A stretch of DNA of 64,000 nucleotides from Alphaproteobacteria bacterium (GCA_041940205.1 JBGTSP010000001.1:245-64244), one strand, 5' to 3'. Positions 8,678-45,077 are shown, counted from the first letter of the stretch. Numbers and translations: made by a program. The notes: generated by a model from the sequence alone, not told the origin.

Positions 8678-9930
8678 GATTTCAGGCGAACGGCGTTCGT
8701 CGGGAACGCGTCGTGCAGGACGCCATCAAGCAGCCGTCCGGCCGCTCTCTTGCCGACCCGCTGGAAAGTCGCGTGGCTCTCGTCACTGGCGACAAAGGAC
8801 AGGCCGTCCTCCCATCTTGGATCGGCGTCGAAGTCCGCGGGGAACAGGTTGTGCTTGTCCTCGACGCGGCCGTTCTGGCTCTTCCAGTAGGGGGCGGCAT
8901 CCGGCTCCCACGGCAGCCACTCGCCGATCTGTTTCAGCAGAAACGGGATTCCGGCGCTGGCGCACTGGTCGCGAATCCCGCGCGGCCAGTCGGGATGCAT
9001 CGGCCGGGCGTTGCGCCCGCTCTCGCCGCCGGCGACGACCCAATGCAGGCCTTTGCCCGGTGCCTTGCGGAAGGTGCGGCAATCGCACTCGTGGCAGCTT
9101 TGCGACACCCCGCCTGTGTTCGGGCAGCGGGTAAAGCCGTGACCGTGGCCGCACTGGCAACCGGCCGGATAGCCCGCACGCACCCCTAGCAGATAGCGGT
9201 GCATGTCCACCGGCCCCAGCAACGGCTCAGCCGAAATCCAGCGAACGGATGCCGGCGTCGCCAGCAGTTCGGGGATGCGCAGATCGGCCGTCTTCTGATC
9301 CTCGACCGACGTGCCGAGCCAGACGTTCGGGAGCGGCCAGTCCCAGCCCATCGCCTTGCACCGACCGGCCTCGGTCCAGAGCTTTTCGTTTGAAGGATCG
9401 GCAAGACCAAACGCATCGAGGAAAGGCTCACAGGCCTCCTCAATACGGACCCGGCGGCCCGTCTCTTTGCCGGCGGGAATGTGAATGCGGCAGACTTCAC
9501 GGGCCGGCGTCCCCTGCCACTTTTCCTCAAACCATGAGCGCATCCGTTCCGGCCGTTTCGTCAGCACCTGGAACGTGTGCTGCGGACAGAGCGCCATCAT
9601 CGCGAAGATCCGGTCGATCCACTCGTCCTCGACCCAATCGCCGAAAAGGTCGGTCATCGAACACACGAAAACCCTCCGGGGCCGGCGCCAGCGAAGCGGC
9701 TGGGTGAGCGCCTTCTCGTCGAGGAACAGGTCCACCTTGGCCCTGTCCTGGGCGGCGAAGCGGATCGGGTTCTGGAAGCGCGCCTGCCAGTCCTCGGAGT
9801 AGCAGTTCCGACAGGCCTCGGACGCGTGAACGCAGTAGTGACCTACTTTGCCGGTTGCGCGGTTGCGTGCTCGGAGTGGGTTCCAGGTGGCGTCCGTCCA
9901 TTCGATCTTCGATCGTTCAGCCATCGGCAT
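8674..9930 (-). CDS. Phage Gp37/Gp68-family protein (DUF5131, radical-SAM-related) with C-terminal extension
   Basis: Signature N-terminus MAERSKIEWTDATWNPLRA, Cys cluster CVHASEACRNC, later CQCGHGHGF...CHECDC; start trimmed to MPMAERS (RBS-less internal Met of ORF 8674..10182). ATGA overlap with xis. Confidence 0.7.
   Translation of the reverse strand: MPMAERSKIEWTDATWNPLRARNRATGKVGHYCVHASEACRNCYSEDWQARFQNPIRFAAQDRAKVDLFLDEKALTQPLRWRRPRRVFVCSMTDLFGDWVEDEWIDRIFAMMALCPQHTFQVLTKRPERMRSWFEEKWQGTPAREVCRIHIPAGKETGRRVRIEEACEPFLDAFGLADPSNEKLWTEAGRCKAMGWDWPLPNVWLGTSVEDQKTADLRIPELLATPASVRWISAEPLLGPVDMHRYLLGVRAGYPAGCQCGHGHGFTRCPNTGGVSQSCHECDCRTFRKAPGKGLHWVVAGGESGRNARPMHPDWPRGIRDQCASAGIPFLLKQIGEWLPWEPDAAPYWKSQNGRVEDKHNLFPADFDADPRWEDGLSFVASDESHATFQRVGKRAAGRLLDGVLHDAFPTNAVRLKS
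8686..8700. repeat. GC palindrome family copy 1 (gGCGAACGGCGTTCGt)
   Basis: Perfect 13-bp core CGAACGGCGTTCG; 9 bp upstream of xis start / just past Gp37-like stop. Confidence 0.6.
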
Positions 9931-10525
9931 CGCCTCGCATTTCGACCGGTACCTTGATGGCGTCGAGGTGGGCGAACTCGCGAGGGTGCGGCAGGATGAT
10001 GAGCGTTTTTTCCGAGAACCATACGCCCGCGTTGGCGAACACACCCCAGTGCGCTTTGTAAATTGGTGCGCCCCTGGTGTGGCGGACCCAGATCTTTGTT
10101 CCGTCCCGCGGCGCTGCCTGGATAGGTTGCCAAGGTAAGCCGCTTCTATCGTCCTTCCCCTGTTCCGAGTGTCGATGCGCAACGGCCTCGCTCGCGAGCT
10201 GGTTGTTCTTGGCCGTCAAGCGATTCTCGACGGCCCTTTGAAGGTCGATCTGGCCTTCGGGACACGTGGTGGCCATCCGAAGTGCGCAGATCACCATGTC
10301 GGCAACGTATTTCTCGACGTCGCCGCGTACCGTGAGATTGGCCCAGTCCACGCCCCCGTGTTCGGCATCGTTGAGGATCGAGGCCAGTTTTCCACCAGCC
10401 TTGTGGACGTGCAGAAGAGCGTGCGCGAAGTCCTTGTGGGTCATGGGCGTCGCCCTGAAGTCCCGGTGATAGTGGCCCGTCCAGGGCAGGCCGCTCTGCA
10501 GCTCGCGGATGGTCCTGTCGCTCAT
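9917..10525 (-). CDS. Hypothetical phage protein, C-terminal DUF551-like domain
   Basis: 202 aa; C-terminus LPWQPIQAAPRDGTKIWVRHTRGAPIYKAHW resembles DUF551 of prophage proteins; overlaps neighbours. Confidence 0.4.
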   Translation of the reverse strand: MSDRTIRELQSGLPWTGHYHRDFRATPMTHKDFAHALLHVHKAGGKLASILNDAEHGGVDWANLTVRGDVEKYVADMVICALRMATTCPEGQIDLQRAVENRLTAKNNQLASEAVAHRHSEQGKDDRSGLPWQPIQAAPRDGTKIWVRHTRGAPIYKAHWGVFANAGVWFSEKTLIILPHPREFAHLDAIKVPVEMRGDADG

Positions 10526-12465
10526 TCTGATACCTCCTCGTTCTTAATCTCCCCGAGCCGGGCCCGAACCGTCTTTTCGTCGGCGAAGTGCAGCTCCGGC
10601 GGGATCCAGCCCTGGCGGCGGTCGGGGTGGTCGAGGATCCACTTGACCGCGTCGCCCTTCTTCATCGCGTCGATCTCCGCCTTGGTGGTGGCGGGATCGA
10701 GGCCGTCGATCGCCTGGATGGCGACGCGGGCGAGCTGGGGCTTCGTCAGGGCCTTGAGATAGGCCTCCTCTAGAGTCCAGTCCCCGGGCTGCACCGCGGT
10801 GTCCGCCACGCGGGCGATCGCCGGGATCAGCGGATGGTCGCCCAGGCCCGTGTCGTGGCCGTTCCAGCTGCCGACCTGGGTGGCGATCAGTGCCGCGAAG
10901 ATCCTGTGCAGGCGCTCCTCGTCTTCCAGCAGCCAGTCGAGGCAGGCGCTCCAGTCGAAGCCGCTCTTGAAGTCACCGTGATAGCGATCCGCATCGAGCC
11001 GGCAGGCCTCCGGCATCTGCTCGAGGAGGTCGATCAGGATCTGCTGCTGCAGCAGTGTGGGCTGGTGGTCGAAGCCGCCGATCGGGTCTTTCAGCAGCCG
11101 CACCGGGCTGCGGCGCAGCAGGCCGATCACCACCAGGGCCACCGGCAGCGCGCGGTTTTCGGTGCGGGCGAGTTCGAGCTGCAGGGTCCAGGTCTTGGTG
11201 TTGCGGGCCTGCTTCTGCAGGGCCTTGGGGATCGGATCCTTCGGCCTTGCGTCCGCCTTGACGGTGGCGGTGGCGTCGGCGCGCTTCGGCTTGATCAGGC
11301 CGGTGTGGACCTTCAGCATTCGGAAGCGGTTCAGCTCGATGATGACGCCGGCACCATCGGCCTTCTTGCCCTTCTCGAATTCTCCTGCCCAAAACGTCGA
11401 GTATGTCTCGGCGCCGTCGCGGATCTCCACCCAGGCCCAGCCCGCCGCGCGAAGCTCGCCGGCCTGTCGTTCGGCCTCGGCGACCTGTGCCAGTTTGAAG
11501 GCGTCGGCGTCCTGAAAATACTCGTTGCCGTCGCCGTCGTTGAAGATCTCCAGGCCGGATTCAATGACGTCGAAGGCCGCGCGATCGACGGGGATCATGT
11601 CTCCGGTGATCATCTCGGTGACATCCTTCTCGTCGACGTTCTGGCCCCACTCCCTTTGGGTCACGATCCGGTCGAGCACATCCGCCTGTCGCGTCTCGGG
11701 TGCTCGCGCGAGGGCGCGGGCCTGGGCCAGGTTGATCTCTCCGGTCGCTAGGGCCTGCTTCGCCGGATCGGACAGGCCGCGGCAGAGCTGCACGCGCTGC
11801 TGTACCCAGCGACGGGTGCGGCCGATCTTCCTGGCGAGGTCCTCGGTGTCGACGCCGGCGTCGACCGCCGCCGCGAGCGCCGCGGCCTCCTCCAGCGGGG
11901 GCACTTCCTCGCGCTGCAGGTTCTCCACGATCGCCATCATCACGACGTCCTGATCGCTCAGGTCCTCGATCCGGGCAGGCACCGGCCAGGTCTCGTCGAC
12001 CGTCTCGCCACGGACGTCGCCGGCGGCCTCGGCCAGGAAGCACAGGGCGCGGAAGCGCCTGGCGCCGGCGACGATCTCGAAACGCCCGGGCTCGGCCGCG
12101 GGGCGCAACAGCAGGTTCTGCAGCAGGCCTTGGGCCGCGATGCTGGCGGCGAGCTGCTCGATGCTGTCCGGATCGAAGCTCTTGCGGGGATTGAGCGGGC
12201 ACTCGACCAGGTCCCGCAGTATCACGCCGGCCGTCCCGTCCGCGGTCGCGGCGGGGACGGCCGGCGTTGGATCCACGCCGATCAGGGCGGCCGCGGTGAT
12301 GTCGAGCGCACCGGCGAGCTTCTCGACCTGTTCCAGGGTGGGGGAGACTGCGCCATCGCGGATCCGTCGGATCGTGTCCCGCGAGACGCCGGATGTTTTC
12401 TCGAGCGCGCGGTTGCTGAGGCTCTGCGCGTCCATCGTGCCGGCGAGGGTTGTGGCGATCGTCAT
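10522..12465 (-). CDS. HTH(XRE)-ParB/Srx N-domain fusion protein with about 350-aa uncharacterised C-terminal region
   Basis: Start chosen at ATG 12465 preceded by GGAGG; HTH LSNRALEKTSGVSRDTIRRIRDG...; ParB box FDPDSIEQLAASIAAQGLLQNLLLRP...FEIVAGARRFRA. Confidence 0.7.
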   Translation of the reverse strand: MTIATTLAGTMDAQSLSNRALEKTSGVSRDTIRRIRDGAVSPTLEQVEKLAGALDITAAALIGVDPTPAVPAATADGTAGVILRDLVECPLNPRKSFDPDSIEQLAASIAAQGLLQNLLLRPAAEPGRFEIVAGARRFRALCFLAEAAGDVRGETVDETWPVPARIEDLSDQDVVMMAIVENLQREEVPPLEEAAALAAAVDAGVDTEDLARKIGRTRRWVQQRVQLCRGLSDPAKQALATGEINLAQARALARAPETRQADVLDRIVTQREWGQNVDEKDVTEMITGDMIPVDRAAFDVIESGLEIFNDGDGNEYFQDADAFKLAQVAEAERQAGELRAAGWAWVEIRDGAETYSTFWAGEFEKGKKADGAGVIIELNRFRMLKVHTGLIKPKRADATATVKADARPKDPIPKALQKQARNTKTWTLQLELARTENRALPVALVVIGLLRRSPVRLLKDPIGGFDHQPTLLQQQILIDLLEQMPEACRLDADRYHGDFKSGFDWSACLDWLLEDEERLHRIFAALIATQVGSWNGHDTGLGDHPLIPAIARVADTAVQPGDWTLEEAYLKALTKPQLARVAIQAIDGLDPATTKAEIDAMKKGDAVKWILDHPDRRQGWIPPELHFADEKTVRARLGEIKNEEVSE

Positions 12466-12869
12466 CGGGTGTCCTCCAGGCTGGTGGTGTCCGGCATCCG
12501 GATCTGTTGCTGGAAAATCCGCACGGCGCTGCACCCGTGCCTGGTGATCCGCACGAGGGTGCGGTCGGTCCGCGCGAACGGGCCGCCACCGATCCGGGCG
12601 GCCCAGCCGCGCCGCTCGCAGGCGGCCAGGGCGTCGGGATCGCAGGTCGCCAGCGGCAGCGGACCCATCCAGAGGGCGTCGAGCAGGTCCTCGACGCCGG
12701 GATCGGGCTGTTCGCCCGGCCAGGGCAGGTGCGGGACCGGCGCGGGCGGGCGAAACAGGCGAACGGTGTTCGCCAGGGACGGCCGCCCGCTCACGCGCCT
12801 GGTTCCGCATTGCCGGGCGGCAGGCCGCCCAGGCCGAGGTCGATGCGCACCCGGGAAGCGCCGGGCCAC
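12462..12869 (-). CDS. Hypothetical protein, GTG start with AGGAGG SD
   Basis: 135-aa frame; strong SD 10 nt upstream of GTG at 12869; stop overlaps ParB-like start (ATGA); overlaps 3' end of upstream gene by 79 bp so uncertain. Confidence 0.3.
   Translation of the reverse strand: MARRFPGAHRPRPGRPAARQCGTRRVSGRPSLANTVRLFRPPAPVPHLPWPGEQPDPGVEDLLDALWMGPLPLATCDPDALAACERRGWAARIGGGPFARTDRTLVRITRHGCSAVRIFQQQIRMPDTTSLEDTR
12768..12784. repeat. GC palindrome family copy 2, variant GGCGAACggtGTTCGCC
   Basis: 7-bp arms with 3-nt centre; at 3' end of 12791..13375 gene. Confidence 0.5.
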
Positions 12870-13375
12870 CTGGCCTCGACCTCCTCGAGGGTGTCGACGC
12901 TGTTGATCAGGGTGAGGCGGCGCTCGCGGGCGGTGTTGTACTTCTTCCGCTCGGCCTCGACGGCCTTGCGCAGGCGGCGAAGAGCGGTGCGGGCGCCGGT
13001 GTCGAGATGGTCATGCAGATCCCGGCCCTTCAAGTCGTGGGGGATCGCGTACTCGATGTGCCATTCCTTCGGCAGCTTGATCTGGTGGTTCGGACTGTAC
13101 GACCGTTCGGGATCGAAGCTGATCTCCTTCATCGTCCGGGTGGCGCCGAACCGGCGCAGGACGCCAAGATCCCTGGGCCTGCAGAGCGTTTTGGCCAGGC
13201 GGTCCAGTTCGATGGCGGCATCCAGCACAAGCGCCATGATCGTCGGCGGCGGATCGCCGGCGCGGATCGCCAGGTCGAGAGCCTCCGGCTCCGCCTTCGC
13301 CATGTCCGCCAGCTTCCGCCGCAGCTTCTGGGTGAGGCGGACGGGACGGCGGGTGGTCGATTTCTTCGCGGTCAT
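12791..13375 (-). CDS. Hypothetical phage early protein
   Basis: Start trimmed to MTAKKSTTRRP; charged/helical; no recognisable domain. Confidence 0.45.
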   Translation of the reverse strand: MTAKKSTTRRPVRLTQKLRRKLADMAKAEPEALDLAIRAGDPPPTIMALVLDAAIELDRLAKTLCRPRDLGVLRRFGATRTMKEISFDPERSYSPNHQIKLPKEWHIEYAIPHDLKGRDLHDHLDTGARTALRRLRKAVEAERKKYNTARERRLTLINSVDTLEEVEARWPGASRVRIDLGLGGLPPGNAEPGA

Positions 13376-14077: not shown

Positions 14078-14681
14078 GCGGGCCTCCGGTGATTGGGAGG
14101 CGAAAAATTTCCACAGAAGATATTTCTAAGTCAACTTATTATTTTTCCGTAGGGGACACACTGCTGCGCCATGGCGTGTAGTGATCAGCGAAATCCTTTC
14201 CGCTACGGAACGATTCACACCGCTCAACAGCCATTCTTTTTCGCGGAAAACTGCGGCATTGACTCCACTGCCGGCTTTGGGAAGGGTGATCGACGGTGGC
14301 GACGGTGTTCGCCCTTCCTCCGCCTCCGGCCAGGTCGCGTCCTGATAGCCGGCGGGGCGCGTTCTGCGCTTCGGAGTGCCGGCCTCTTGCCGGTTTCGTG
14401 GAGGAAGTCATGGCCGGCCCGAAGATCGTCTTCGTGCGATCCTACATCCGGTTCCGGTGGGGGAAGTGGGAGCATGTCTGCGCCCACTTCCGTAGTCCAC
14501 CGAGGCAACTGAGTTTGCCGTTCTGACAGTGTTCACGCGCTTCGGAACGGTGACTCAGTAGCAGCGAACGCCGTCGCCACTGCCGCCATCCTGACCATTC
14601 CACTGGCGCGGTCAAGCGCATGCATCGCGGTGCCAGCGCGCCGGCCCGTCGCGCACCGGGTGCGCGGAAATCGCGATCGTC

Positions 14682-14698
14682 GGCGAACGCCGTTCGCC
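14682..14698. repeat. GC palindrome family copy 3 GGCGAACGCCGTTCGCC
   Basis: Perfect 17-bp palindrome abutting cI stop codon. Confidence 0.6.
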
Positions 14699-15408
14699 TA
14701 GTCGGCCGATGTCATCGGGCCCAGGGGACGCTCCGGCCGGTAGGAGGCGATCACCAGGGCGATCACGTGGATGTCTTCAATCGTTGAAAAACCGCCGTTT
14801 TCGTCGTGGTTGGGATCCGGCCGGGGCAGCCGGATCGGCACCCGGTGCTCTGGATTCGATGATCGCGGGGAGAGCCAGAACTTGCCGTACTTGTCGACCA
14901 CGAACTCCTTCACCGTGGCCTCGTATTCGCCCAGGTTGTTGCGGCGCTGCACGATCACCCGCTCGCCCGGTTCGGGCCAGCGCTCCAGCTCCACCATCGG
15001 CACGACGATCAGGATCGTGCCGTCGGGATACACCTCGTCCATCGAATCGCCGCGCACGAGGAAGCCGGAGACCGTGTGGTGCGCCCAGCGATCGTCCACC
15101 GGGGCGGCGATCGCAAAGCGCTCGAGCACCGGCCATTCCACGGCCTCGGCCCAGTGGCCGGCCTGGACGGCGCCGCGCACGGTGATCGATCTCATCCCCG
15201 GCAAGTCGTAAACCGGGTCCTCCTCCTTCAGGAGGTCCGCCTGACGGACGCCCAAGGCAGGAGCGATTCGTTTCAGCCAGTCGACGCTGAGTCGAATCGC
15301 GCCCGTTTCGAGCTTTTGAATTTGCGCATCGGTCGTTCCGACGGCTTCGGCCAGTTTGGCAAGCGTGAGGCCGCGTTCCTTGCGCCACTCGCGGATTCGG
15401 TTGTCCAT
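14698..15408 (-). CDS. cI: CI-like prophage repressor: XRE HTH plus S24 (LexA/UmuD-like) self-cleaving peptidase domain
   Basis: MDNRIREWRKERGLTLAKLAEAVGTTDAQIQKLETG HTH; C-terminal S24 fold with Ser (GDSM) and Lys (KEFVV...K) dyad region; start trimmed from ORF 14698..15621. Confidence 0.85.
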   Translation of the reverse strand: MDNRIREWRKERGLTLAKLAEAVGTTDAQIQKLETGAIRLSVDWLKRIAPALGVRQADLLKEEDPVYDLPGMRSITVRGAVQAGHWAEAVEWPVLERFAIAAPVDDRWAHHTVSGFLVRGDSMDEVYPDGTILIVVPMVELERWPEPGERVIVQRRNNLGEYEATVKEFVVDKYGKFWLSPRSSNPEHRVPIRLPRPDPNHDENGGFSTIEDIHVIALVIASYRPERPLGPMTSAD

Positions 15409-15502
15409 TTCGGCATTATTTCCGACATGGAAATCAATGGGATACGCCCGGAAAACATTTTCTCCTTGACTTAAAATGTCTTGAGAGGAAATTTTTTGAG
15501 CC
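15409..15502. promoter_or_regulatory. Divergent cI/cro switch region with AT-rich inverted repeats (candidate operators) and -35-like TTGACT
   Basis: atttccGACATggaaat, gGAAAAcaTTTTCtcc, TTGACTtaaaatgtcTTGAGAgg between divergent cI and cro starts; GC far below flanks. Confidence 0.5.
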
Positions 15503-17038: not shown

Positions 17039-17247
17039 GCACGAAACCCTGGGCCGCCATCCTCAACGGGCAGTTCGTCGGCCGGGCCTCGACCCGGCAG
17101 GCGGCGATGAACCTGATCGATCGGCCGTACCAGGCCGGTGCCGGCCGGATCGAACGGTCGCGCACGGGCGAGACCTGGCGGCGGCGCGGCGGGAGCTGGT
17201 TCCGCGTGGCCGCGTCGGCCGGTGTGAAGACGGGGGTGGCGGCATGA
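17035..17247 (+). CDS. Hypothetical small phage protein
   Basis: 70 aa, ATGA-coupled on both sides. Confidence 0.35.
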   Translation: MSTKPWAAILNGQFVGRASTRQAAMNLIDRPYQAGAGRIERSRTGETWRRRGGSWFRVAASAGVKTGVAA

Positions 17248-18491
17248 AACACCTGCTCTGCCTGCTGGGCCTGCACGACTGGCGGCTGATTCCTCACGGG
17301 CATCCGGGCGAATGCCTGTTCCTGTGCCCCCGATGTGGCGAGGCAGTGCGATTGTCACCGCCGCTCGACACGGCGATCGACGCGTCGATGGCGGCCGTAC
17401 TGCCGGCGCCGGCGCCCGCGCGTCGCCGGCCGCGGCTGAGCGTGGCGGTCGAACGGTCGGGACTGCGGCCGGCGGTAACCGCGGCGATGCCGGATGCGAA
17501 GAGGGCGCGGGCGATCGCGGGTGTGGAAGATTTCGCGCAGGCATTTGGCGGGCCGGCTCGCGCGCCGGTGCGCGGGCGCGACGAAGATTCGCGGGCGGCG
17601 TCGTCCGGAGGGACAGGACCCTCTCCGGATGCGTCCGCGGAGGCGGCCGTATCCGGGACACCGCGTCCTTCCGACACGGATCCGGTCGCCTCGGACATGC
17701 CGCCGGAGCGGGATAGGCCGCTGCCGCCAAAGCGCGCGGCGCTGCTGCGGTTGCTGATCGAGGCGCGGGGGCCGGATGGTATCTGTCGGGCGACCAACCG
17801 CGAACTCGGCAATGCGCTCGGCTGCTCAAACGGCGGTGTTGTTAAGCCTCTGGCCAAGCTGGAAACCGACGGCTGGATCGCGCGGACAGGCTCGACGAAG
17901 GCGCGGGAGATCCGCGTACTGTACAGCCCGCAAGCCCAAGTGCCGGCATCGCCGCCTGCGGCAGAACCGGAGCCGGAACCCGCGATCGCCGGGAGTGATG
18001 ACGAGGACCCACACCCGGTCCCGCTGTCACCGATGCTAGAGAACCTGCTGAACGAGATCATCTCGTTGACGGACGAGTCAGGGACGGCCCGTCCGACGAA
18101 TGCTGCGCTTGCCTCGGCTTTGGAGATGGAAGCCAACGCCGTGTCGGCGCGTTTGAAAATTCTCGACGACCGGGGCTATGTGGGTCGATCGCACGATGGC
18201 GAAGGCCGCGCGATCCATGTTCTCAGGTGGCCTGACGGTGAGCCGTTCGTGGCCGACGCCGAAGACCAGGACGATGAAGCGGAAGACGTCGTCGCGGAAC
18301 CCGAGCCGGAAGACGAGACGGACGGTGCCGAGGAGCTTCAGGCGCCTTCGAAGGTACGCGATCGGAACTGCCTGACCTGTGGAAAGGTCTTTCGATCGGA
18401 AGGACCGCACAACCGCATGTGCGGATCGTGTCGCCACAAGTCCGAAGACTCCGCCGGCGATCCCCATGTTCTGCACGGTGGGCGGCGATGA
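17244..18491 (+). CDS. Hypothetical DNA-binding protein: N-terminal Cys4 cluster, two winged-helix-like modules, C-terminal zinc ribbon (candidate replication initiator/regulator)
   Basis: CLFLCPRCGEAV; repeats LLRLLIEARGPDGICRATNRELGNALGCSNGGVVKPLAKLETDGWI and LLNEIISLTDESGTARPTNAALASALEMEANAVSARLKILDDRGYV; CLTCGKVF...CGSCRHK. Confidence 0.5.
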   Translation: MKHLLCLLGLHDWRLIPHGHPGECLFLCPRCGEAVRLSPPLDTAIDASMAAVLPAPAPARRRPRLSVAVERSGLRPAVTAAMPDAKRARAIAGVEDFAQAFGGPARAPVRGRDEDSRAASSGGTGPSPDASAEAAVSGTPRPSDTDPVASDMPPERDRPLPPKRAALLRLLIEARGPDGICRATNRELGNALGCSNGGVVKPLAKLETDGWIARTGSTKAREIRVLYSPQAQVPASPPAAEPEPEPAIAGSDDEDPHPVPLSPMLENLLNEIISLTDESGTARPTNAALASALEMEANAVSARLKILDDRGYVGRSHDGEGRAIHVLRWPDGEPFVADAEDQDDEAEDVVAEPEPEDETDGAEELQAPSKVRDRNCLTCGKVFRSEGPHNRMCGSCRHKSEDSAGDPHVLHGGRR

Positions 18492-19162
18492 CCCGGCAGA
18501 CCCGATCGGGCCGCGGCCAGCCCAGCGAGCCGGGCAGGGGCGGCCGTCCGAAATCCGATTTCTACGCGACGGACCCGGCGTACAGCAGCGCGCTGTTCGA
18601 GGCGCTCGCCTGGCGAAACCGGTTGCCGAAGAGCCTGTGGGAACCGGCCTGCGGCGACGGTGCGCTCGCCCGGGTGGCGGAGGCCTATGGCGTGACTGTG
18701 ATCGCCAGCAACCTGTACGGCCAGGGCTACGGCGAGGTCGGCGTCGATTTCTTGAAAGTCGAGAGCCTGGCCTGGCGATCGACGACGATCATCACCAATC
18801 CGCCCTGGTCGGGCCGGCGGGACAAGAACTTGCCGCTGCGCTTCCTGGAGCATGCCCAGCGGCTGGGGGCGAAGGAGATCTGGCTGCTGCTGCCGCTGGG
18901 CTGGATTGCCAGCGACTTCCGGCGGGAGCGGGTGTTCCCGGGCCTGGCCGATGTCTGGATCGTCAACAGCCGCGCGCCGATGTGGCCCTATGGCGTGGCG
19001 CCGCCGGATGCGCGGCCGAACCCGACGATGACGGAAGACTGCGCCTGGTTCGGCTGGCACGCAGGCGCGCGGTTCAGCGGGCCGCGGCTGGCTCTGATCG
19101 ATCCCGCGCCGGCCTATCAGGGTCGCGCCGGCGAACGGCGTTCGTCGGTAGAGGGGGCGTGA
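18488..19162 (+). CDS. Orphan N6-adenine DNA methyltransferase
   Basis: SAM motif I EPACGDG and catalytic motif IV NPPW; no adjacent restriction enzyme. Confidence 0.7.
   Translation: MTRQTRSGRGQPSEPGRGGRPKSDFYATDPAYSSALFEALAWRNRLPKSLWEPACGDGALARVAEAYGVTVIASNLYGQGYGEVGVDFLKVESLAWRSTTIITNPPWSGRRDKNLPLRFLEHAQRLGAKEIWLLLPLGWIASDFRRERVFPGLADVWIVNSRAPMWPYGVAPPDARPNPTMTEDCAWFGWHAGARFSGPRLALIDPAPAYQGRAGERRSSVEGA
19129..19149. repeat. GC palindrome family copy 4 ccgGCGAACGGCGTTCGtcgg
   Basis: Near-perfect 21-bp palindrome inside MTase 3' end, about 15 bp before stop. Confidence 0.6.
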
Positions 19163-19365: not shown

Positions 19366-19367
19366 CG

Positions 19368-19802
19368 TCAGGCGGCCTCGAATGTCGGCACCAGGCGCCG
19401 ACCCAGAACGGCGAGCGCGTCCTCGAGGCTGCCGATCTTGGTGGCGTGCCGCGGATCCAGCATGCGCCGAACCAGGGCCTCGTCGATCTCGAGACGTGCG
19501 GCAAGCGCGACCTTGGACAGGCCGTCCTCGCGCATCGCTTCGTAGAGCGCCGCCTTGGCCGCGATCGTGGCGCCCGGCGAGACCGTCGGGCGGCCGTCCG
19601 CCGGCGAAGGATGGGGGATGTCCTGCCGGTCGGCGATGCGGCCGGCCAGCACCTCGGCCAGGCAATCGGCTGCCATGGCAAGCGCATGGGCTTCGTCGTC
19701 GCCACAGGTCACGCCTTCCGGCAGGTCCGGGAAGGTGACGGTGAAGCCGCCGTCATCGGGCTCCGGATGGAGGGTGACGGGATAGGTGAAGGTGCGGGTC
19801 AT
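19368..19802 (-). CDS. hicB: HicB-family antitoxin
   Basis: N-terminal RNase-H-like HicB fold (TFTYPVTLHPEPDDGGFTVTFPDLPEGVTCGDDEAHAL) plus C-terminal DNA-binding region (LSKVALAARLEIDEALVRRML). Confidence 0.8.
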   Translation of the reverse strand: MTRTFTYPVTLHPEPDDGGFTVTFPDLPEGVTCGDDEAHALAMAADCLAEVLAGRIADRQDIPHPSPADGRPTVSPGATIAAKAALYEAMREDGLSKVALAARLEIDEALVRRMLDPRHATKIGSLEDALAVLGRRLVPTFEAA

Positions 19803-19820
19803 GGTCTGGTCCTTCCGGGT

Positions 19821-20027
19821 CTAGAGGTCCGCGTCGTCAAGGCCAAGCTGGGCGAGGATCGCTTTCAGCGTACCGGTCTTCAGCTGGCCGGACGGCACGG
19901 TGGCCTTGCGGTCGTTCCATGTGAACGTCTCGTGCGAGCCCTTGCCCTGCTTCGTGGAGACGGAGAAGTCCGCCCCGGTCTTTCGGGCGATCTTGCGAAG
20001 GCGGCGCTTGAGCTGTTCCCTGTTCAT
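19821..20027 (-). CDS. hicA: HicA-family mRNA interferase toxin
   Basis: 68 aa; HicA core GADFSVSTKQGKGSHETFTW...TVPSGQLKTGTLKAILAQLGL; immediately upstream of hicB. Confidence 0.8.
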   Translation of the reverse strand: MNREQLKRRLRKIARKTGADFSVSTKQGKGSHETFTWNDRKATVPSGQLKTGTLKAILAQLGLDDADL

Positions 20028-20102
20028 GCATTCTATATCGGACGTTTTTGTCCGATTTCAAGGGACGGATCGGATTTTTTTATCCGATTTTTCGATCCCT
20101 GC

Positions 20103-20119
20103 GGCGAACGGCGTTCGCC
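20103..20119. repeat. GC palindrome family copy 5 GGCGAACGGCGTTCGCC
   Basis: Perfect 17-bp palindrome 12 bp upstream of CHC2 primase start. Confidence 0.6.
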
Positions 20120-24271: not shown

Positions 24272-26264
24272 ACCGGCTCCGTTCTATCCTGCCGCGGCGG
24301 TCGTGGCGGATGCGTTCGCTCTGCTCGAGGTGCCCGAGCGACTGAGCGTCAGCGAGGCGGCGGAGCGATACCGTGTCCTGGAGAACCGCGGCGGCGGCGT
24401 CTCCGGGCCCTGGACGTTCGACCTGCTGCCGTTCCTGCGGCGGCCGATGGACTGTCTTGGACCGGACAACAGCTACGCCACGGTGGCGGTGATCGGACCT
24501 GCCCAGACGGGCAAGTCGTCAATCGGCGACAACTGGCTGCTCTACTCGGCGATTTGCGATCCGGCGGACATGCTGATGCTGGGGCCGGACAAGGCGATCA
24601 TGCGGGACTACTCGGTCTCGCAGATCGACCGCATGGTGAGATCGTGCCCGGAGCTGCGCCGCCGTCTGCGGCCGGTGCCGAGCGCGGACAACATCTTCTC
24701 GAAGCTGTTCCAGGGGATGGCGTTCTTCATCGCCTGGCCGGTGGCGAGCCAGTTGCGGGCGCGACCGGTACCGCGGTGCCGGATCGATGATTACGACGCG
24801 GTGCCAGAGGACATCGATGGCGAGGGCAACGCCCTGGTGCTGATGTCCGGCCGACAGACGACGTTCGAGGGATTCGAGAAGACCTACGTGAACTCCTCGC
24901 CGGCGCTTGGCGCCGACCGGGGGATCGAGGCTGTCGTGGCCTCGGGCACGGACGAGCGATGGACGGTGCGCTGCCTGCAGTGCGATCACCCGTTCGCGCT
25001 CGACTGGGATCACGTGAGTTACCACGCAACCGGGACGCCGGAAGAGGCTGCCGAGAGCGTGTGCGTGGTCTGCCCGGACTGCGGTCACCCGCATGCACCG
25101 GGCGACAAGCGGAAGCTGATGGCCCGTGGCGCCTATGTCGGCGCCGGCCAGGAGATGCAGCCGGACGGCAGGATCGTCGGGGAACTTCGTCGCACGTCGA
25201 TCGCGTCGTTCCGCTGGGACGGCCTTATCGGTCTCGCAAGCTGGGGTCGCCTGGCCGAGCTGGCGCGTCGGGCCGAGCAGACGTTCGAGGCGACGCAGGA
25301 CGAGGACGAGCTGCGGGCCTTCATGACCGCGCGAGTCGGCCGGAACTTCGTCTCCCGCCTGGCGGGGGCGAAGCCGGTCACGTCGGATGCCCTGGTCGCC
25401 CGCGCCGAGGCGGGCGGTCATGTTCCGGGTGAGGTGCCGGATTGGGCGATCTGCCTGACGGCGGCCGTCGACGTCCAGGCCAACCGGTTCGAGGTCATGG
25501 TCATGGCCTGGGGACCGGGCCTGGAAGCGGCAATCGTCGATCGGTTTCCGATCCTGGCCCTCGAGGACGGAACGGAAGCGATGGATCCCGCCGGCCGGGT
25601 CGAGCACTGGGCGGTGCTGCTGCCCAAGGTGATGCTGAGGCGCTACCCGGTGGCCGGTCAGCCGCACCGGTCGCTCGCGATCGTCAACACGGCGATCGAC
25701 ACTGGCGGACTGGAAGGCGTGACCGACAACGCCTTCAGCTTCTGGCACACGGTCTATGGCAGCCGAGGGCGCGCCGGCCTGACCTCGCTGACGCTGGTGA
25801 AGGGCGGCAGCAATCCGAGGGGCCGGATGCTGCCGCCGCCGACCGTCGACACGAAGCGGCGACTGAAGGGGCATCCGGACCCCGAGCTGTTCGTGCCGAA
25901 CGTGAACCGGGTGAAGGACATGTTGAACGGCCGTCTCCACCGCGAGGAGCCGGGCCCGCTGTTCCTTCACCTGCCGCGGGGCATGGAGCCCACGCATATC
26001 GCGGAACTGACGGCCGAGCAGAAGGTGAACGGGCTCTGGGTCCGCAAACCGGGCGAGGCCAACGAGACATGGGATCTGTGGGTCTACAACGCCGTGGCGC
26101 TGATGCGCCATGGCGCGTCCGACCCGACTCTGAACTGGGTGCCTGACTGGGCCCGGCCGCAAGACAAGCCGGCCGGCGAACCGCGTTCGCCGGAAATCGA
26201 GGTCAAACAGGTGCGCGCGGGGCCGCGGCGGAAGCTGCGGACACGGGTGCGAGGGAGACGCTGA
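24255..26264 (+). CDS. Terminase large subunit, lambda gpA family
   Basis: 669 aa; gpA-family layout with ATPase Walker A GPAQTGKS and C-terminal nuclease; start trimmed to MQPQPE. Confidence 0.9.
   Translation: MQPQPEPAPFYPAAAVVADAFALLEVPERLSVSEAAERYRVLENRGGGVSGPWTFDLLPFLRRPMDCLGPDNSYATVAVIGPAQTGKSSIGDNWLLYSAICDPADMLMLGPDKAIMRDYSVSQIDRMVRSCPELRRRLRPVPSADNIFSKLFQGMAFFIAWPVASQLRARPVPRCRIDDYDAVPEDIDGEGNALVLMSGRQTTFEGFEKTYVNSSPALGADRGIEAVVASGTDERWTVRCLQCDHPFALDWDHVSYHATGTPEEAAESVCVVCPDCGHPHAPGDKRKLMARGAYVGAGQEMQPDGRIVGELRRTSIASFRWDGLIGLASWGRLAELARRAEQTFEATQDEDELRAFMTARVGRNFVSRLAGAKPVTSDALVARAEAGGHVPGEVPDWAICLTAAVDVQANRFEVMVMAWGPGLEAAIVDRFPILALEDGTEAMDPAGRVEHWAVLLPKVMLRRYPVAGQPHRSLAIVNTAIDTGGLEGVTDNAFSFWHTVYGSRGRAGLTSLTLVKGGSNPRGRMLPPPTVDTKRRLKGHPDPELFVPNVNRVKDMLNGRLHREEPGPLFLHLPRGMEPTHIAELTAEQKVNGLWVRKPGEANETWDLWVYNAVALMRHGASDPTLNWVPDWARPQDKPAGEPRSPEIEVKQVRAGPRRKLRTRVRGRR
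26174..26194. repeat. GC palindrome family copy 6, variant ccGGCGAACcgcGTTCGCCgg
   Basis: 9-bp arms around CGC; in TerL 3' end about 70 bp before stop. Confidence 0.55.
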
Positions 26265-29619: not shown

Positions 29620-30387
29620 ATGACCACACTCGCTGCCGACAAGCCGCGCAGCTTTCACGTCGGGGAATTCCTCGACCTGCCGGTGATCGCGTCCGACCGC
29701 ATCTACCAGGGCGCCGCCGTTGGCGACAACGGATCGGGCTACATGCGCCCGCTGCAGTCCGGCGATCCGTTCCGTGGCTTCGCCGACTTCGGTGTCGACA
29801 ACAGCTCCGGCTCGGCCGGCGACAAGGACGTTCGCCTGCGCCAGAAGGGGCTGGCGACGTTGTCCATCTCCGGTGTCGCGATCACCGACGTCGGCCGGCC
29901 GGTCTATGCGACGGACGACGACACCTTCGTCCTGACCGGCGCCGGTACCAAGGTTGGCCGTGTTGCCGCCTACGTGTCGTCCGGCGTCGCGCTGGTGGAA
30001 TTCGACGCCCGCGGCCTGGAGGAGGCGGTCAAGGAGTGGGTGATCCCGATCTCCCTGGCCACGATCACCGGCGCCGGCGACGTCCTCTCCGCCCATACCC
30101 CGGGCCACTGGGGTCGCGTCCTCTCGCTGGACTTCTTCGTCGGTACGCCGGTCACCACGGCCGCGAAGCTGGCGACGCTGAACGCGGAGATCGGCGCGAC
30201 CAACCTGACGGGCGGCACGGTCGCCCTGACGTCGGCCAACTGCACGCCGCTCGGCGCGAAGGTCGCCGGCGCGGCCGTGACCGCGGCCAACGTGTTCGGG
30301 CCCAGCGACACGATCTCGATCGAGGCCGCCAGCGTCACCGCGTTCGCCGAGGGCGACGGCGCGCTGATCGTTCGCCTGGGCTTCTGA
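29620..30387 (+). CDS. Head structural protein at decoration-protein (gpD) position
   Basis: 255 aa G/A/T/V-rich beta-type protein between protease/scaffold and major capsid; assignment by synteny only. Confidence 0.4.
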   Translation: MTTLAADKPRSFHVGEFLDLPVIASDRIYQGAAVGDNGSGYMRPLQSGDPFRGFADFGVDNSSGSAGDKDVRLRQKGLATLSISGVAITDVGRPVYATDDDTFVLTGAGTKVGRVAAYVSSGVALVEFDARGLEEAVKEWVIPISLATITGAGDVLSAHTPGHWGRVLSLDFFVGTPVTTAAKLATLNAEIGATNLTGGTVALTSANCTPLGAKVAGAAVTAANVFGPSDTISIEAASVTAFAEGDGALIVRLGF

Positions 30388-30402
30388 GCGAACGCCGTTC
30401 GC
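30388..30402. repeat. GC palindrome family copy 7 GCGAACGCCGTTCGC
   Basis: Perfect 15-bp palindrome starting 1 bp after stop of 29620..30387. Confidence 0.6.
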
Positions 30403-30473
30403 CACCCTTCCCGTGACCCCGGCGCCATGGAGCGCCTCATGGCCCGTCGGGCCGAGACAAGGAGACCCCCACA

Positions 30474-31463: not shown

Positions 31464-31554
31464 CGCGGGCAACCGCGTTCCGAGCGTGACGGCCGGGCGG
31501 CTCTTGCTGCCCGGCCGGGTCACACCATCCCGAATCCAACCGAAGGAGGCAGCC

Positions 31555-32091
31555 ATGCAGATGGTTCGCGTGATCGCAGACTATTTCCCGGTGAACCCGG
31601 GCGAACTGGTGCAGCTCAATGGCGACCAGGCCGATGCCCGGGCGTTTGCCCTGAAAGTCCGGCCGGACATCGCCGACAACGTGTTCGAGGTCCTGCGCCG
31701 GACCGGCTTCAAGCGCGGAGAGACGTTCGGATATGGCAGTACGCCGGACAAGCAGCGCCTGGCGGCGATCGTCGATCCCGAAAGCGGCCGGGCGTTCGAC
31801 CTGGCGGCGTTCCGGGTAGAGGTCGCGGAGACGCCGGCGGAAGAGCTGGACGACGAACAGCTCGCGGCCGTCGCCCTCGCGATCGCCGGGATGGACCCCG
31901 ACGACGAGAGCCAGTTCACCAAGTCCGGCAAGCCGGATGCGAAGGTGTTGACCGAGGCCGTCGGGTTCACCGTGACGGCGAAAGCGCGGGATGCCCTCTG
32001 GGCGGCGCACCAGGCCGTAGTGAGCGCCACCACCGCCGCCGAGGGCGAAGGCGCCGACGGGAGTGACGGCGGACCGGGTTCGCTGGTCTGA
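31555..32091 (+). CDS. Hypothetical head-completion / DNA-packaging accessory protein (gpFI position)
   Basis: 178 aa; GAAGGAGG RBS; synteny only. Confidence 0.35.
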   Translation: MQMVRVIADYFPVNPGELVQLNGDQADARAFALKVRPDIADNVFEVLRRTGFKRGETFGYGSTPDKQRLAAIVDPESGRAFDLAAFRVEVAETPAEELDDEQLAAVALAIAGMDPDDESQFTKSGKPDAKVLTEAVGFTVTAKARDALWAAHQAVVSATTAAEGEGADGSDGGPGSLV

Positions 32092-32093
32092 AC

Positions 32094-33595: not shown

Positions 33596-33751
33596 ATGTC
33601 CAGCGAACGCCGTTCGCCGAAGAAGACGCTTGCCCGCCGCACCGGGGGCAGCACCACGATCGAGCAGCCGCCGCCGGCGCCGGTCGAGGCCGACGACGAC
33701 AAGCCGGCCGCGGCGCCGCCTCGCAAGCGCAAGGCCGCGGCGGCCGACTGA
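33596..33751 (+). CDS. Small basic protein (51 aa), uncertain
   Basis: GAGAGG RBS; palindrome GCGAACGCCGTTCGC sits at codons 3-7; may be non-coding. Confidence 0.25.
   Translation: MSSERRSPKKTLARRTGGSTTIEQPPPAPVEADDDKPAAAPPRKRKAAAAD
33603..33617. repeat. GC palindrome family copy 8 GCGAACGCCGTTCGC
   Basis: Perfect 15-bp palindrome 27 bp after gpU-position stop. Confidence 0.6.
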
Positions 33752-33797
33752 GCGGCAGAACCACCCCTTCGCATCACCCCATCGGGAGACCTGATCC

Positions 33798-39496: not shown

Positions 39497-39499
39497 TCA

Positions 39500-40201: not shown

Positions 40202-40211
40202 GGAGGGGAGA

Positions 40212-43191: not shown

Positions 43192-43574
43192 GATCCGGAA
43201 CGCTTCTTCCGATCGCGGCCGCCGTTCTGGCGGCCGTTTTCGTTTCGGGCTGCACCGGGCCCGGCCGGCCGGCGAACGTCGTCACCGAGCCGTTCCCGAA
43301 CAGGCTCGACTGCACCGGCCCGGGCGATGTCGCGGCCGTGATGCTGGCCCGCTGGCCCGACGCGACAGGCTATGTGCTGGGCCCGGCGATGCGGGAAGCC
43401 ATCCTCCAGGACATCGCGCTGTTCAGGGGCTTCCGTCCGGACGCGGACATGGTGGTCGCCTGGGCGGACGCCGCCCCGAATGTCGTGCCCCTGCACCTGT
43501 TCAAGGCCGGCTGCCACGTCTTCGCGACGGGCGTCGACCTTGAACGTATCCGTCCGGTCGGCGAGCCGACCTGA
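43188..43574 (+). CDS. Phage-encoded lipoprotein (GTG start)
   Basis: Signal peptide plus lipobox LAAVFVSGC; proline-rich mature N-terminus. Confidence 0.5.
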   Translation: MRSGTLLPIAAAVLAAVFVSGCTGPGRPANVVTEPFPNRLDCTGPGDVAAVMLARWPDATGYVLGPAMREAILQDIALFRGFRPDADMVVAWADAAPNVVPLHLFKAGCHVFATGVDLERIRPVGEPT

Positions 43575-43607
43575 CCCCACCGGCGAACGAAGTACCCGGG
43601 AGACACC

Positions 43608-43844
43608 ATGGAACATAGCAACGAGACGAGGATCGCGCTGCTCGAGCAGGAGCTCGCGAACACACGCCAGAGCCTGGCGAAAACCCAGGAGCAGGTCAGC
43701 CGGCATGACCAGGTCCTCCACATGGCCAGTGGCGGAAAGCGGTTGGTCATGCAGCTCCTCGGCGTCCTCGTCTCGATGACGGTGCTCGCCGGCGCCGTCT
43801 GGGCTTCGGTGAAGTACCTGGTGCAGCTCGGGGCTGGAAAATGA
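43608..43844 (+). CDS. Small membrane protein, N-terminal coiled coil plus C-terminal TM (lysis-region; holin/antiholin candidate)
   Basis: GAGACACC RBS-like; TM LVMQLLGVLVSMTVLAGAVWA. Confidence 0.4.
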   Translation: MEHSNETRIALLEQELANTRQSLAKTQEQVSRHDQVLHMASGGKRLVMQLLGVLVSMTVLAGAVWASVKYLVQLGAGK

Positions 43845-44368
43845 ACATCTCAACCGCTCGCGGGCTGTGGGCCGCGTTCAACCAGGCGGCCCTTCGGACG
43901 GCGGGCTGGGGGTTCCTCGCGATCTGCGCGGCAATCGCCTTCGGAGTCGGGACCGTGGGACCGGTTTTCACGATCGAGGCAGGCCTGGATCGGCCGGTTC
44001 GCGATGGACGACCTGTCGGCGTCGTGCGCCCGGGCGATCGGGTGTTCCGGCAGGTGACCTACGAGGTGCACTACCGTCATTGCGGCACGCTCAGGCACAC
44101 GCTGCATGCCGGCTCCGCGGTGATCTATCTGCCGGACATCGGCGCGGTCTGCTCGGATCCCGGACGCTACGAACGCCGCCTCTTCCCCATCCCGATCGAA
44201 GCGCTCGAAGGCGTGCCTGCGGGCCCGGTGATCTACGACAGCCGGATCGACTATCCGCCCCGCCACCCGGTGCTTCTCGGCCTGCGCCTGCCGCTGCGGA
44301 TCGCGCCGCCGGCGCCGGCGATTCCACCGGTGCGGTTCAGGTGGGAGCCGGAGGTCGACGCGCCATGA
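43841..44368 (+). CDS. Membrane-anchored protein with proline-rich C-terminus (spanin-like candidate)
   Basis: N-terminal TM WGFLAICAAIAFGVGTVGPVF; ATGA-coupled. Confidence 0.35.
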   Translation: MNISTARGLWAAFNQAALRTAGWGFLAICAAIAFGVGTVGPVFTIEAGLDRPVRDGRPVGVVRPGDRVFRQVTYEVHYRHCGTLRHTLHAGSAVIYLPDIGAVCSDPGRYERRLFPIPIEALEGVPAGPVIYDSRIDYPPRHPVLLGLRLPLRIAPPAPAIPPVRFRWEPEVDAP

Positions 44369-44574
44369 TCGAGAAGATTCCCCGCCCACGAGTTCCCGAG
44401 AAGCATGCCGGTACGGCCGCCGGCGTGATCACCACTGCCATCTTCGCCGCTCTCGACTGGCTCACCGATCTGCCGCCGGCGCCACCCGAGCTGGTCGGCT
44501 CGACCGTCGTCATCACCAGCTGGGCGGTGGGATGGCTGCGGGCCTGGTGGCGCAAAAGGACCCACTACCGATGA
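44365..44574 (+). CDS. Small hypothetical protein (69 aa)
   Basis: ATGA-coupled between membrane protein and endolysin. Confidence 0.3.
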   Translation: MIEKIPRPRVPEKHAGTAAGVITTAIFAALDWLTDLPPAPPELVGSTVVITSWAVGWLRAWWRKRTHYR

Positions 44575-45077
44575 ACGCTGCAATCGATGCCCTCGAGGCC
44601 CGCCGGGCCCTAGATCCCCACCGACGTCTCTCGAAGAACTTCACCCTGCGCGAGGCCATGCGCAGCCAGCTCGCACTGCGCCACGGGATCGACAACTGCC
44701 CCTCGGCCGAGCTGGTGCCGGCGCTCGAGGCCGTGGCCGCACACGTGTTGCAGCCGGTGCGGGACTTCTACGCCCGGCCCTTCACACCCTCGAGCTGGTA
44801 CCGGTGTCTCGACCTCAATCGCCGCCTCGGCAGCCGCGACAGCAGCCAGCACGTGCGCGGCCAGGCGGTGGATTTCGAGGTGCCGGGGATCTCAAACGTT
44901 GAGGTCGCCATGTGGTGTCGCGACCGTCTCGAGACCTTCGACCAGCTGATCCTCGAGTTCCACACGCCCGGCGATGCGACGAGCGGCTGGGTGCACTGCA
45001 GCTGGGTGAGCCCGGCCGACAACCGCGGCGAGGTTCTCACCATCTCGGCGAACGGCGTTCGCCGGGGATTGCCCTGA
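44571..45077 (+). CDS. Endolysin, peptidase M15 (zinc D-Ala-D-Ala carboxypeptidase-like) family
   Basis: Zn-binding motifs SQHVRGQAVDF and ...LILEFH plus D; start trimmed to MNAAIDAL. Confidence 0.75.
   Translation: MNAAIDALEARRALDPHRRLSKNFTLREAMRSQLALRHGIDNCPSAELVPALEAVAAHVLQPVRDFYARPFTPSSWYRCLDLNRRLGSRDSSQHVRGQAVDFEVPGISNVEVAMWCRDRLETFDQLILEFHTPGDATSGWVHCSWVSPADNRGEVLTISANGVRRGLP
45047..45063. repeat. GC palindrome family copy 10 GGCGAACGGCGTTCGCC
   Basis: Perfect 17-bp palindrome 15 bp before endolysin stop. Confidence 0.6.

Follow-up and report, generated by a model that had tools for sequence, protein, structure and literature searches.

The prophage and its dispersed palindrome

A 64,000-nucleotide stretch of an alphaproteobacterial genome (Alphaproteobacteria bacterium, GCA_041940205.1, JBGTSP010000001.1:245-64244), referred to here as the window, carries an integrated tailed prophage of about 40 kb, in which a GC-rich palindrome of 15–17 bp recurs at gene ends and junctions. 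The analysis concerned this palindrome and an orphan ParB-like protein with an extra helix-turn-helix (HTH) domain, which is encoded by the same prophage and probably reads the palindrome. The prophage is bounded by two attachment (att) repeats at a tRNA gene, and the features on which the argument draws are the following:

7124-7200: tRNA-Val
7152..7207, direct repeat: attL, the 56-bp core repeat, which is the 3' part of tRNA-Val
7281-8420, minus strand: integrase gene
10522..12465, minus strand: orphan HTH-ParB protein of 647 amino acids, the proposed palindrome reader
14698..15408, minus strand: cI-like repressor (HTH and peptidase S24)
47107..47162: attR, the second copy of the 56-bp core, which with attL bounds the prophage of about 40 kb

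The empty site is represented by a metagenomic contig (L116), in which the flanks are 99–100% identical and joined without an insert. According to gene calls and profile searches, the early part of the prophage comprises the integrase, an xis-like open reading frame (ORF), a DUF5131 gene, the HTH-ParB gene, cI (HTH and S24), a cro-like gene and a CII-like gene. The middle part holds an HD phosphohydrolase, an ORF with two winged-helix domains, a methyltransferase-like gene, HicAB, a primase and a D5-type helicase. The late part consists of the small and large terminase, portal, S49 protease, decoration protein, Mu-gpT-like capsid protein, tail genes, peptidase M15 and holin.

The core of the palindrome, CGAAC-N3-GTTCG (CGAACNNNGTTCG), was present in 11 exact copies in the window, as compared to 0.18 ± 0.41 expected from 100 dinucleotide-preserving shuffles of the window, none of which reached 11. 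The full 17-mer GGCGAAC-N1-3-GTTCGCC matched five times, with 0.00 expected; the GC content of the window is 69%. Thus, the dispersed GC-rich palindrome described in a first-pass annotation of this DNA is real. The exact 15-mers start at 8686, 12759, 14683, 19131, 20104, 26176, 30388, 33603, 35465, 45048 and 45681. Most of the positions listed by the annotation were correct, whereas 12768 has to be moved to 12758/12759 and 26174 to 26175/26176. Its count of about ten copies was incomplete, since the copy at 45681 (GCGAACCGGGTTCGC) and a twelfth copy at 32069 with one mismatch in the 15-mer (GCGGACCGGGTTCGC) had been overlooked. Half-sites named at 31466 and 46930 are weak resemblances only, are insignificant and were given no weight. 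The copies, shown as 17-mers, are located as follows:

8685..8701: copy 1, GGCGAACGGCGTTCGTC, within the final codons of the DUF5131 gene, with the xis-like ORF starting about 9 bp downstream
12758..12774: copy 2, GGCGAACGGTGTTCGCC, upstream of the parB start by 293 bp, where a small ORF preceding parB has its 5' end; the parB-proximal site
14682..14698: copy 3, GGCGAACGCCGTTCGCC, with the 15-mer abutting the stop codon of cI (HTH and S24)
19130..19146: copy 4, GGCGAACGGCGTTCGTC, near the end of the methyltransferase-like gene, 17 bp ahead of its stop
20103..20119: copy 5, GGCGAACGGCGTTCGCC, in the divergent hicA/primase intergenic region, about 13 bp before an in-frame primase ATG
26175..26191: copy 6, GGCGAACCGCGTTCGCC, where the large terminase gene encodes its variable C-terminal tail; the stop follows after 74 bp
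30387..30403: copy 7, AGCGAACGCCGTTCGCC, directly next to the stop of the decoration-protein gene and upstream of that for the major capsid protein
32068..32084: degenerate copy, GGCGGACCGGGTTCGCT, whose 15-mer has one mismatch; a gene stop follows after 8 bp
33602..33618: copy 8, AGCGAACGCCGTTCGCC, at a gene junction and at the start of an ORF of 51 amino acids
35464..35480: copy 9, GGCGAACCGCGTTCGCG, in the gene that precedes the tape-measure region, 111 bp ahead of the stop codon
45047..45063: copy 10, GGCGAACGGCGTTCGCC; the peptidase M15 stop follows after 15 bp and the holin-like gene after 29 bp
45680..45696: copy 11, GGCGAACCGGGTTCGCG, 1 bp after the stop of the holin-like gene, at the end of the late operon

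The sites share the dyad form GGCGAACG-S-CGTTCGCC, an odd-centred arrangement of 7+3+7 with a length of 15–17 bp. The description as a perfect palindrome does not apply to all copies, as those at 8686 and 19131 carry the outer arm GTTCGT and are not perfect 17-mers. Besides the positions fixed by the search, the −1/+1 positions (G/C) were conserved at 77–87% and the outer GG/CC at 82–91% in the window, and the flanks of the copies showed no conservation past 17–19 bp. GGC-centred and GCC-centred copies are one sequence seen from opposite strands; their centre triplets have no orientation relative to transcription, and no strand bias was observed.

All copies lie within the att-bounded prophage and span 37 kb of it, from 8.7 to 45.7 kb. 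Neither the 24 kb of flanking host DNA nor the host contigs L116-L121 and L323-L326 contained a copy. Thus, the restriction of the motif to the prophage, as stated by the first-pass annotation, holds.

The annotated proximity to gene ends and starts was also borne out. By the gene calls of this analysis, all 11 exact copies in the window are 0–111 bp from a gene boundary; about 31–33% of random positions are equally close, and the chance of 11 out of 11 being so near is about 5e-6. Its specific placements, at the cI stop, at the decoration-gene stop, about 13 bp before the primase ATG and about 9 bp before the xis-like start, were all found. Placement statistics, which rest on crude gene calls, were also obtained for 106 sites of the window and its relatives: 50% of them were at most 50 bp from a gene boundary (17% of random positions), and 43% were intergenic (20% of random positions). 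Copies inside ORFs occupy different reading frames, as had been claimed, and are translated as ANAVR, GERRS or GEPRSP. Selection offers the simplest explanation for the bias towards gene ends, a fixed sequence of 15–17 bp being tolerated solely between genes or in unconstrained protein termini.

Some copies are found at promoter-like junctions (hicA/primase, upstream of xis, upstream of the parB operon, after cI), while most lie within the late operon. A scan of the window with the sigma-70 consensus gave nothing useful in DNA of 69% GC. Two nearly complete relatives carry eight copies each, scattered over the early, replication and structural regions.

The ParB protein and its association with the palindrome

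The 647-residue HTH-ParB protein of the prophage is composed of the following domains:

residues 3-62: XRE-type HTH
residues ~84-184: ParB N-terminal CTPase fold
residues ~187-270: ParB HTH
residues 290-647: uncharacterised C-terminal region

Pfam assigned HTH_3, ParB_N and HTH_ParB to it, and a sequence search of the PDB returned Spo0J (E = 3e-24), Noc (6e-20) and KorB (6.5e-9). The protein has a ParB CTPase fold with conserved nucleotide-binding boxes, followed by a ParB-type HTH. The Box II glutamate is required for hydrolysis of cytidine triphosphate (CTP) in canonical ParB. Box II (residues 134-137) reads GARR in the window protein, GERR in most members of its clade, GGRR in L248 and GSRR in L252, and the window protein may form long-lived clamps. 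No ParA-like family was detected in Pfam scans of the early-region ORFs or in the Pfam list of late genes, and the ParA-binding peptide LG(R/K)GL was not seen in the window protein, whose N-terminus is the XRE HTH. The protein is therefore considered an orphan ParB on an integrating phage. A type I ParABS partition system was rejected on the same grounds, namely the lack of a ParA partner and of the LG(R/K)GL peptide, and because the element integrates at tRNA-Val via its integrase.

A protein database search yielded 51 homologues, all annotated just as 'ParB/RepB/Spo0J family partition protein'. Among the cultured phages of INPHARED, none had a ParB of the window clade, and a DNA-level search of cultured phages returned weak structural-gene similarity only.

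Motif and protein were found together in viral contigs. The exact 17-mer occurred in 115 IMG/VR stretches, and many motif-bearing contigs had five to eight core copies, i.e., 0.2–0.45 per kb. Nine of the ten most motif-rich contigs, with five to eight copies each, encode a homologue of the window ParB. The phages sharing the motif are mosaic, the lambda-like terminase/portal module of the window being present in some and not in others.

For an independent sample, 80 viral loci were fetched by ParB-domain homology alone and the motif was counted afterwards. The search was seeded with a trimmed alignment of six ParB-domain sequences; a single ParB protein as query found nothing, and a full-length alignment was too divergent as a seed. 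In a neighbour-joining tree of the ParB domains, the motif-bearing loci formed one clade with the window protein. At least one copy of the motif was present in 16 of the 17 clade loci and in 1 of the 63 loci outside the clade (Fisher p = 1e-14). Restricting the clade to contigs not already found via the motif left 10 of 11 loci with it (p = 2e-10). Clade loci had a motif density of 0.163 per kb, as compared to 0.001 per kb for the others, a difference that persisted at a GC content of at least 0.6; the 37 such high-GC loci with other ParB types (638 kb) contained one copy in total. The richest clade locus had eight copies in 16 kb. Named prophages reached by ParB homology alone were those of Reyranella sp. 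(five copies), Azospirillum sp. Sh1 (seven) and Magnetospirillum sp. UT-4 (two, one of them 14 bp before the parB start). Where a host of the ParB clade is named, it mostly belongs to the Alphaproteobacteria (Reyranella, Azospirillum, Magnetospirillum, Vineibacter, Glycocaulis).

No other early protein of the window prophage is common to the motif-bearing relatives, so that, as far as gene content can tell, there is no competing phage binder. Within 10 kb of parB, homologues of cI were present in 5 of the 17 clade loci, of cro in 2, of CII in 4 and of the primase in 8, and g11, g13, g14 and g15 had no homologue in about 200 loci. ParB homologues without the N-terminal XRE domain still accompany the motif; thus, the ParB HTH rather than the XRE HTH is likely the reading head.

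Positions of the sites were conserved as well. In 11 loci, the distance between a copy and the parB 5' end is about 100 bp at most, and in motif-rich loci a copy is typically 25–100 bp upstream of parB or in its first codons, where over-extended parB ORFs translate it as GERRSP. Copy 2 of the window has homologous counterparts in relatives. At the tail of the terminase gene terL, a copy is found 46–114 bp before the stop in 12 distant relatives (L002, L009, L010, L013, L014, L016, L017, L048, L092, L101, L104 and L109), whose terL proteins are 22–50% identical. Since the terL-tail copies are read in two frames (GERRSP and ANAVR), conservation acts at the DNA level and a conserved peptide is ruled out. 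Low coding constraint alone does not explain the conserved terL-tail position.

The sequence of the site was found to vary together with the recognition helix of ParB. The pairs of helix subtype and site variant are:

T-QR[F/Y]-VQQR with GCGAACG-S-CGTTCGC: main subclade
S-DRF-VAQR with mostly CCGAACG-S-CGTTCGG: second subclade
CT-QRH-IQQR with CGAACC-S-GGTTCG: L245 and, independently, L332
KSSRH-VQLR with A/T at the centre in 6 of 7 copies: Azospirillum prophage
K-LRY-VQQR (two-residue insertion) with GGCGCACGCCGTGCGCC, five copies, two just upstream of parB: L252
distant ParB of an element resembling an integrative and conjugative element (ICE), with CGCGGC-N4-GCCGCG, four copies around the gene: L331

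At least five such pairs were recorded, the comparison being qualitative and made without phylogeny correction. The clade members L249 and L282, which have altered helices, carry zero to one copies. When all dispersed copies of a genome change in concert and symmetrically, a trans-acting reader with changed specificity is implied. The window contains a single instance of GCGCACCGGGTGCGC (14651-14665, 18 bp before copy 3), which has the GCGCAC/GTGCGC arms of the L252 variant and may be a coincidence.

A scan of genome contigs matched the 17-mer to at least 120 stretches from very diverse taxa. In the metagenome-assembled genome (MAG) STE_202 it lies in a tandem array of 4.3 copies of 87 bp with AT-rich spacers (L144, 2691-3065), and it occurs at seven or more loci of the cyanobacterium Aetokthonos hydrillicola (including L137, L157, L177, L180, L185 and L200). 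These contexts are unrelated, and the sequence was therefore recruited independently elsewhere. In the Thermoanaerobaculia MAG bins.484 (Acidobacteriota), three contigs (L136, L163 and L239) each carry the 17-mer together with a ParB homologue of 40–44% identity; this reflects either spread of the system across phyla or contamination of the bin.

Several neighbouring genes were noted. A DUF5131 (phage Gp37/Gp68) gene is located a few genes downstream of parB in the window (8674-9735, minus strand) and in the Reyranella and Azospirillum prophages (L327, 13435-14547; L328, 13467-14402), and within 10 kb of parB in 19 of the 80 viral loci. This neighbourhood may reflect a functional pairing, perhaps with a DNA-modification partner, or synteny alone. 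An ORF missed by the gene caller (17244-18491, plus strand) encodes two winged-helix (MarR-like) domains; it is probably a replication initiator and had no homologue among about 200 related loci. The HicAB pair is located at 19368-20027. Next to attR, on its inner side and where the prophage is richest in AT, a DUF433 gene (46036-46530) is followed by a DUF5615/PIN-like gene (46550-46930, both plus strand), and the two look like a toxin-antitoxin pair or moron.

Interpretation and alternative readings

The palindromes are quite probably the cognate parS/OB-like sites of the orphan ParB of the prophage, a reading to which the co-occurrence in the ParB clade and the covariation of helix and site point. 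The first-pass annotation had offered several binders and roles. Its HTH-ParB fusion protein gained support from the comparative data, as did its analogy to KorB operators, and its view that the sites are not CI operators was upheld, whereas stoperators, Cro/CII-like binders and an RNA stem-loop lost ground.

By analogy with ParB, KorB, Noc and BisD, a ParB dimer would recognise the 15–17 bp dyad through its ParB-type HTH, bind CTP, close into a clamp and slide onto neighbouring DNA. Loading from 11–12 sites over 37 kb could cover the whole phage genome with ParB, and the site at the 5' side of the parB operon might serve autoregulation or as a 'home' site. The outcome may be genome-wide transcriptional control during the lysogeny-lytic switch, i.e., silencing as for KorB or activation as for BisD/VirB, or alternatively the organisation or protection of replicating phage DNA. 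Because of the parB-operon site and the copies at promoter-like junctions, a transcriptional role is tentatively ranked first among these outcomes. Since parB is located in a leftward early operon, downstream of the AT-rich region by cI, the protein is probably made upon infection or induction and not in the quiescent lysogen.

A broader and rather speculative possibility is that an orphan ParB-CTPase clade of alphaproteobacterial temperate phages coats the entire phage chromosome with sliding clamps loaded from about 5–12 sites. Such a 'chromatin' layer could time early and late expression, or mark or organise the DNA for replication or packaging, a function that would have kept the terminase-tail and parB-promoter positions in place. 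The fused XRE HTH could then serve as a KorA-like latch, and the same principle might also explain the 17-bp repeats of Cluster O mycobacteriophages.

Several observations weigh against ParB as the reader or against parts of this mechanism. The parB-proximal site is not universal, the nearest copy being 711 bp upstream in the Reyranella prophage (L327) and 2.4 kb upstream in the Azospirillum prophage (L328). Some motif-bearing viral contigs lack ParB in their readable parts, e.g., L063 with six copies in 12.6 kb. Co-occurrence and covariation, on which the case for ParB is built, are partly shared by descent among related phages. As GARR replaces GERR in Box II, CTP hydrolysis may differ from that of canonical ParB. 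Many sites lie deep in the late operon, far from any obvious promoter, and a purely operator-like role would therefore be insufficient. Finally, the host DNA examined, i.e., the 24-kb flank and short contigs, is too small to exclude a low genome-wide density, and most IMG/VR contigs have no host taxonomy, leaving room for a host factor of the same host group.

These last two points bear on the rival that fared best, in which a conserved host protein reads the palindrome, or a host element of the repetitive extragenic palindromic (REP) type forms it, and the link to ParB reflects a clade infecting one host group. The named hosts are indeed mostly Alphaproteobacteria (mostly Rhodospirillales and others), and unrelated repeat families of the 17-mer exist in other bacteria, as in Aetokthonos. 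The absence of copies from the 24-kb flank and from the empty-site and flanking contigs makes a host REP element unlikely. The single copy in 638 kb of high-GC phage loci with other ParB types also speaks against a host reader, as do the concerted variants, which differ between phages and track the phage ParB helix. The ParB-motif pair of the Thermoanaerobaculia MAG points the same way, although its assignment depends on binning. A host factor is thus improbable, and it is kept in consideration because the flanking host DNA examined amounts to 24 kb.

Since the arms could pair as a 7-bp stem with a 3-nt loop (about −9 to −12 kcal/mol, predicted to be stable), and half of the 106 sites lie within 50 bp of a gene boundary, an RNA hairpin that ends, stabilises or processes transcripts at gene junctions was weighed as well. 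Intrinsic terminators were rejected, as a terminator scan was at the level of shuffled sequence, its few overlaps with copies were all on the opposite strand, and no copy was followed by a T-run on the sense strand. The transcript punctuation suggested by the first-pass annotation is also at odds with the conservation of the sequence itself, and not merely of pairing, across copies and phages, compensatory changes being absent from individual genomes. Divergent promoters are flanked by copies on both sides, copies also lie upstream of genes, and the centre triplet is not oriented with transcription. An RNA-level account of the covariation with the ParB helix is lacking, so that a hairpin function is quite unlikely.

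Fainter still is the prospect that the palindromes mark hotspots of recombination or module exchange, or are what is left of a small mobile palindromic element, and accumulate at the gene junctions of mosaic phages. Copies do lie at gene junctions, the phages sharing them are mosaic in their structural and replication modules, and for Cluster O mycobacteriophages, repeats have been observed at the ends of deletions (PMC4351075). Against this stand flanks that are not conserved past 17 bp, positions kept over long divergence in the terL tail and at the parB 5' end, and concerted variant switches that imply a trans-acting reader. Recombination could be a side effect of the sites.

Least probable among the rivals is a role as operators, in the manner of stoperators, for a different regulator of the phage (CI, Cro, CII-like or the double winged-helix protein). 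One copy abuts the cI stop and the prophage encodes several HTH proteins, whereas the homologues of cI, cro and CII are scarce in the relatives that keep the motif unchanged (counts above) and the winged-helix ORF has none. The cI-cro intergenic region (15409-15502) holds different, AT-rich dyads, e.g., TTTCCGACATGGAAA at 15419, none of which resembles the GC-rich palindrome. Relatives (L244, L247, L249, L253, L264, L291, L294 and L329) possess their own phage-specific cluster of three AT-richer palindromes 1–4 kb from parB, near repressor genes (e.g., ATTGCG-N3, TGTCAC-N5 and AATCCA-N3); these are probably immunity operators distinct from the shared GC-rich palindrome.

LexA/Cheo-type boxes have the form CGAAC-N4-GTTCG in Gram-positives and GTTC-N7-GTTC in Alphaproteobacteria; such a box was dismissed in view of the inverted N3 spacing and the link to ParB, as was a Chi-like or restriction-type motif, for which the palindrome is too long and too symmetric.

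Comparison with known systems

With ParB as the probable reader, the closest sequence and structure relatives of the window ParB module are Spo0J and Noc. Noc of Bacillus subtilis uses many dispersed palindromic sites (NBS), and the site of ParB/parS systems is often in or beside the parB gene. Noc and ParB are chromosomal, serve nucleoid occlusion and segregation and bind even palindromes of 14–16 bp, whereas the window system is phage-borne with odd-centred sites of 7+3+7. Unlike canonical ParB/parS, it has no ParA gene and no visible LG(R/K)GL.

The OB site of KorB is odd-centred and present in 12 dispersed copies on the IncP plasmid RK2, and the comparative evidence favours the analogy with KorB operators. 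The window ParB is not a KorB orthologue, as its match to KorB (E = 6.5e-9) is weaker than those to Spo0J and Noc (1e-24 to 1e-20). It also differs from KorB by the extra N-terminal XRE HTH and by an unrelated C-terminal region of 350 amino acids. RK2 has the ParA partner IncC and the co-repressor KorA; neither was found in the window, where no dedicated search for KorA was made. Furthermore, the element of the window is an integrated tailed prophage, unlike RK2.

KorB (PMC11790492) and BisD (PMC12409273) are ParB-family CTP clamps with palindromic sites on mobile elements. BisD of ICEclc from Pseudomonas is an orphan ParB-like CTP clamp on an integrated element (PMC12409273), as is proposed here for the window ParB. 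Its site bisS (GAGCTATCCCCnGGGGATAGCTC) is an odd-centred palindrome like the window motif, and BisD loads there, spreads over tens of kb and controls distant ICEclc promoters (PMC12409273). ICEclc carries two bisS copies, 2 kb apart and inside genes, in contrast to the 11–12 copies across the whole element of the window. BisD needs the partner BisC, and its C-terminal activator domain is not detectably similar to the window ParB.

The Cluster O mycobacteriophages, e.g., Corndog, possess a 17-bp repeat with 7-bp arms and a 3-bp centre (TGTTCGGNNNCCGAACA), as in the window, and these repeats are likewise dispersed, unoriented and in many cases located in short intergenic gaps or at gene ends (PMC4351075). 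They are still unexplained, and the ParB-like gp90 of Corndog was listed by the authors as a candidate DNA binder (PMC4351075). Cluster O genomes of 70 kb carry over 30 copies of a different sequence in an actinobacterial host, and BLASTP revealed no significant similarity between gp90 and the window ParB. Since sequence, copy number and ParB are unrelated, the Cluster O repeats are an analogue and not the same family. Corndog 38000-69777 (L330) contained 25 copies of GTTCGG-N3-CCGAAC in the right 32 kb; one repeat lies between gp92 and the gp91-gp90 operon and another 150 bp after gp90. By analogy, a link between ParB and repeat in Cluster O phages looks worth testing.

The stoperators of L5 and other Cluster A phages, to which the first-pass annotation had likened the palindromes, are also many copies of a short site dispersed in a temperate phage, often at gene junctions. 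They are 13-mers without symmetry that follow the direction of transcription and are recognised by the immunity repressor (PMC4351075), while the window sites are symmetric and unoriented and a cI homologue accompanies the motif in a minority of relatives; the likeness therefore does not hold.

Dispersed palindromic sites for ParB-family clamps on mobile elements are already known from KorB, Noc and BisD. What appears undescribed is an orphan-ParB clade of tailed temperate phages with 5–12 sites throughout the genome, the conservation of their positions and the naturally paired specificity variants; the motif string was not found in the literature searched. ParA-less ParB-like genes are common in prophages, and a 2025 survey considered the roles of prophage orphan ParBs largely unknown and functionally unexplored (PMC12704722). 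A concrete cis element for one such clade turns a vague annotation into a testable system. If the proposed reading is correct, natural ParB-site pairs would be available for specificity engineering, and gene control by sliding clamps in the manner of KorB and BisD would extend from plasmids and ICEs to tailed temperate phages.

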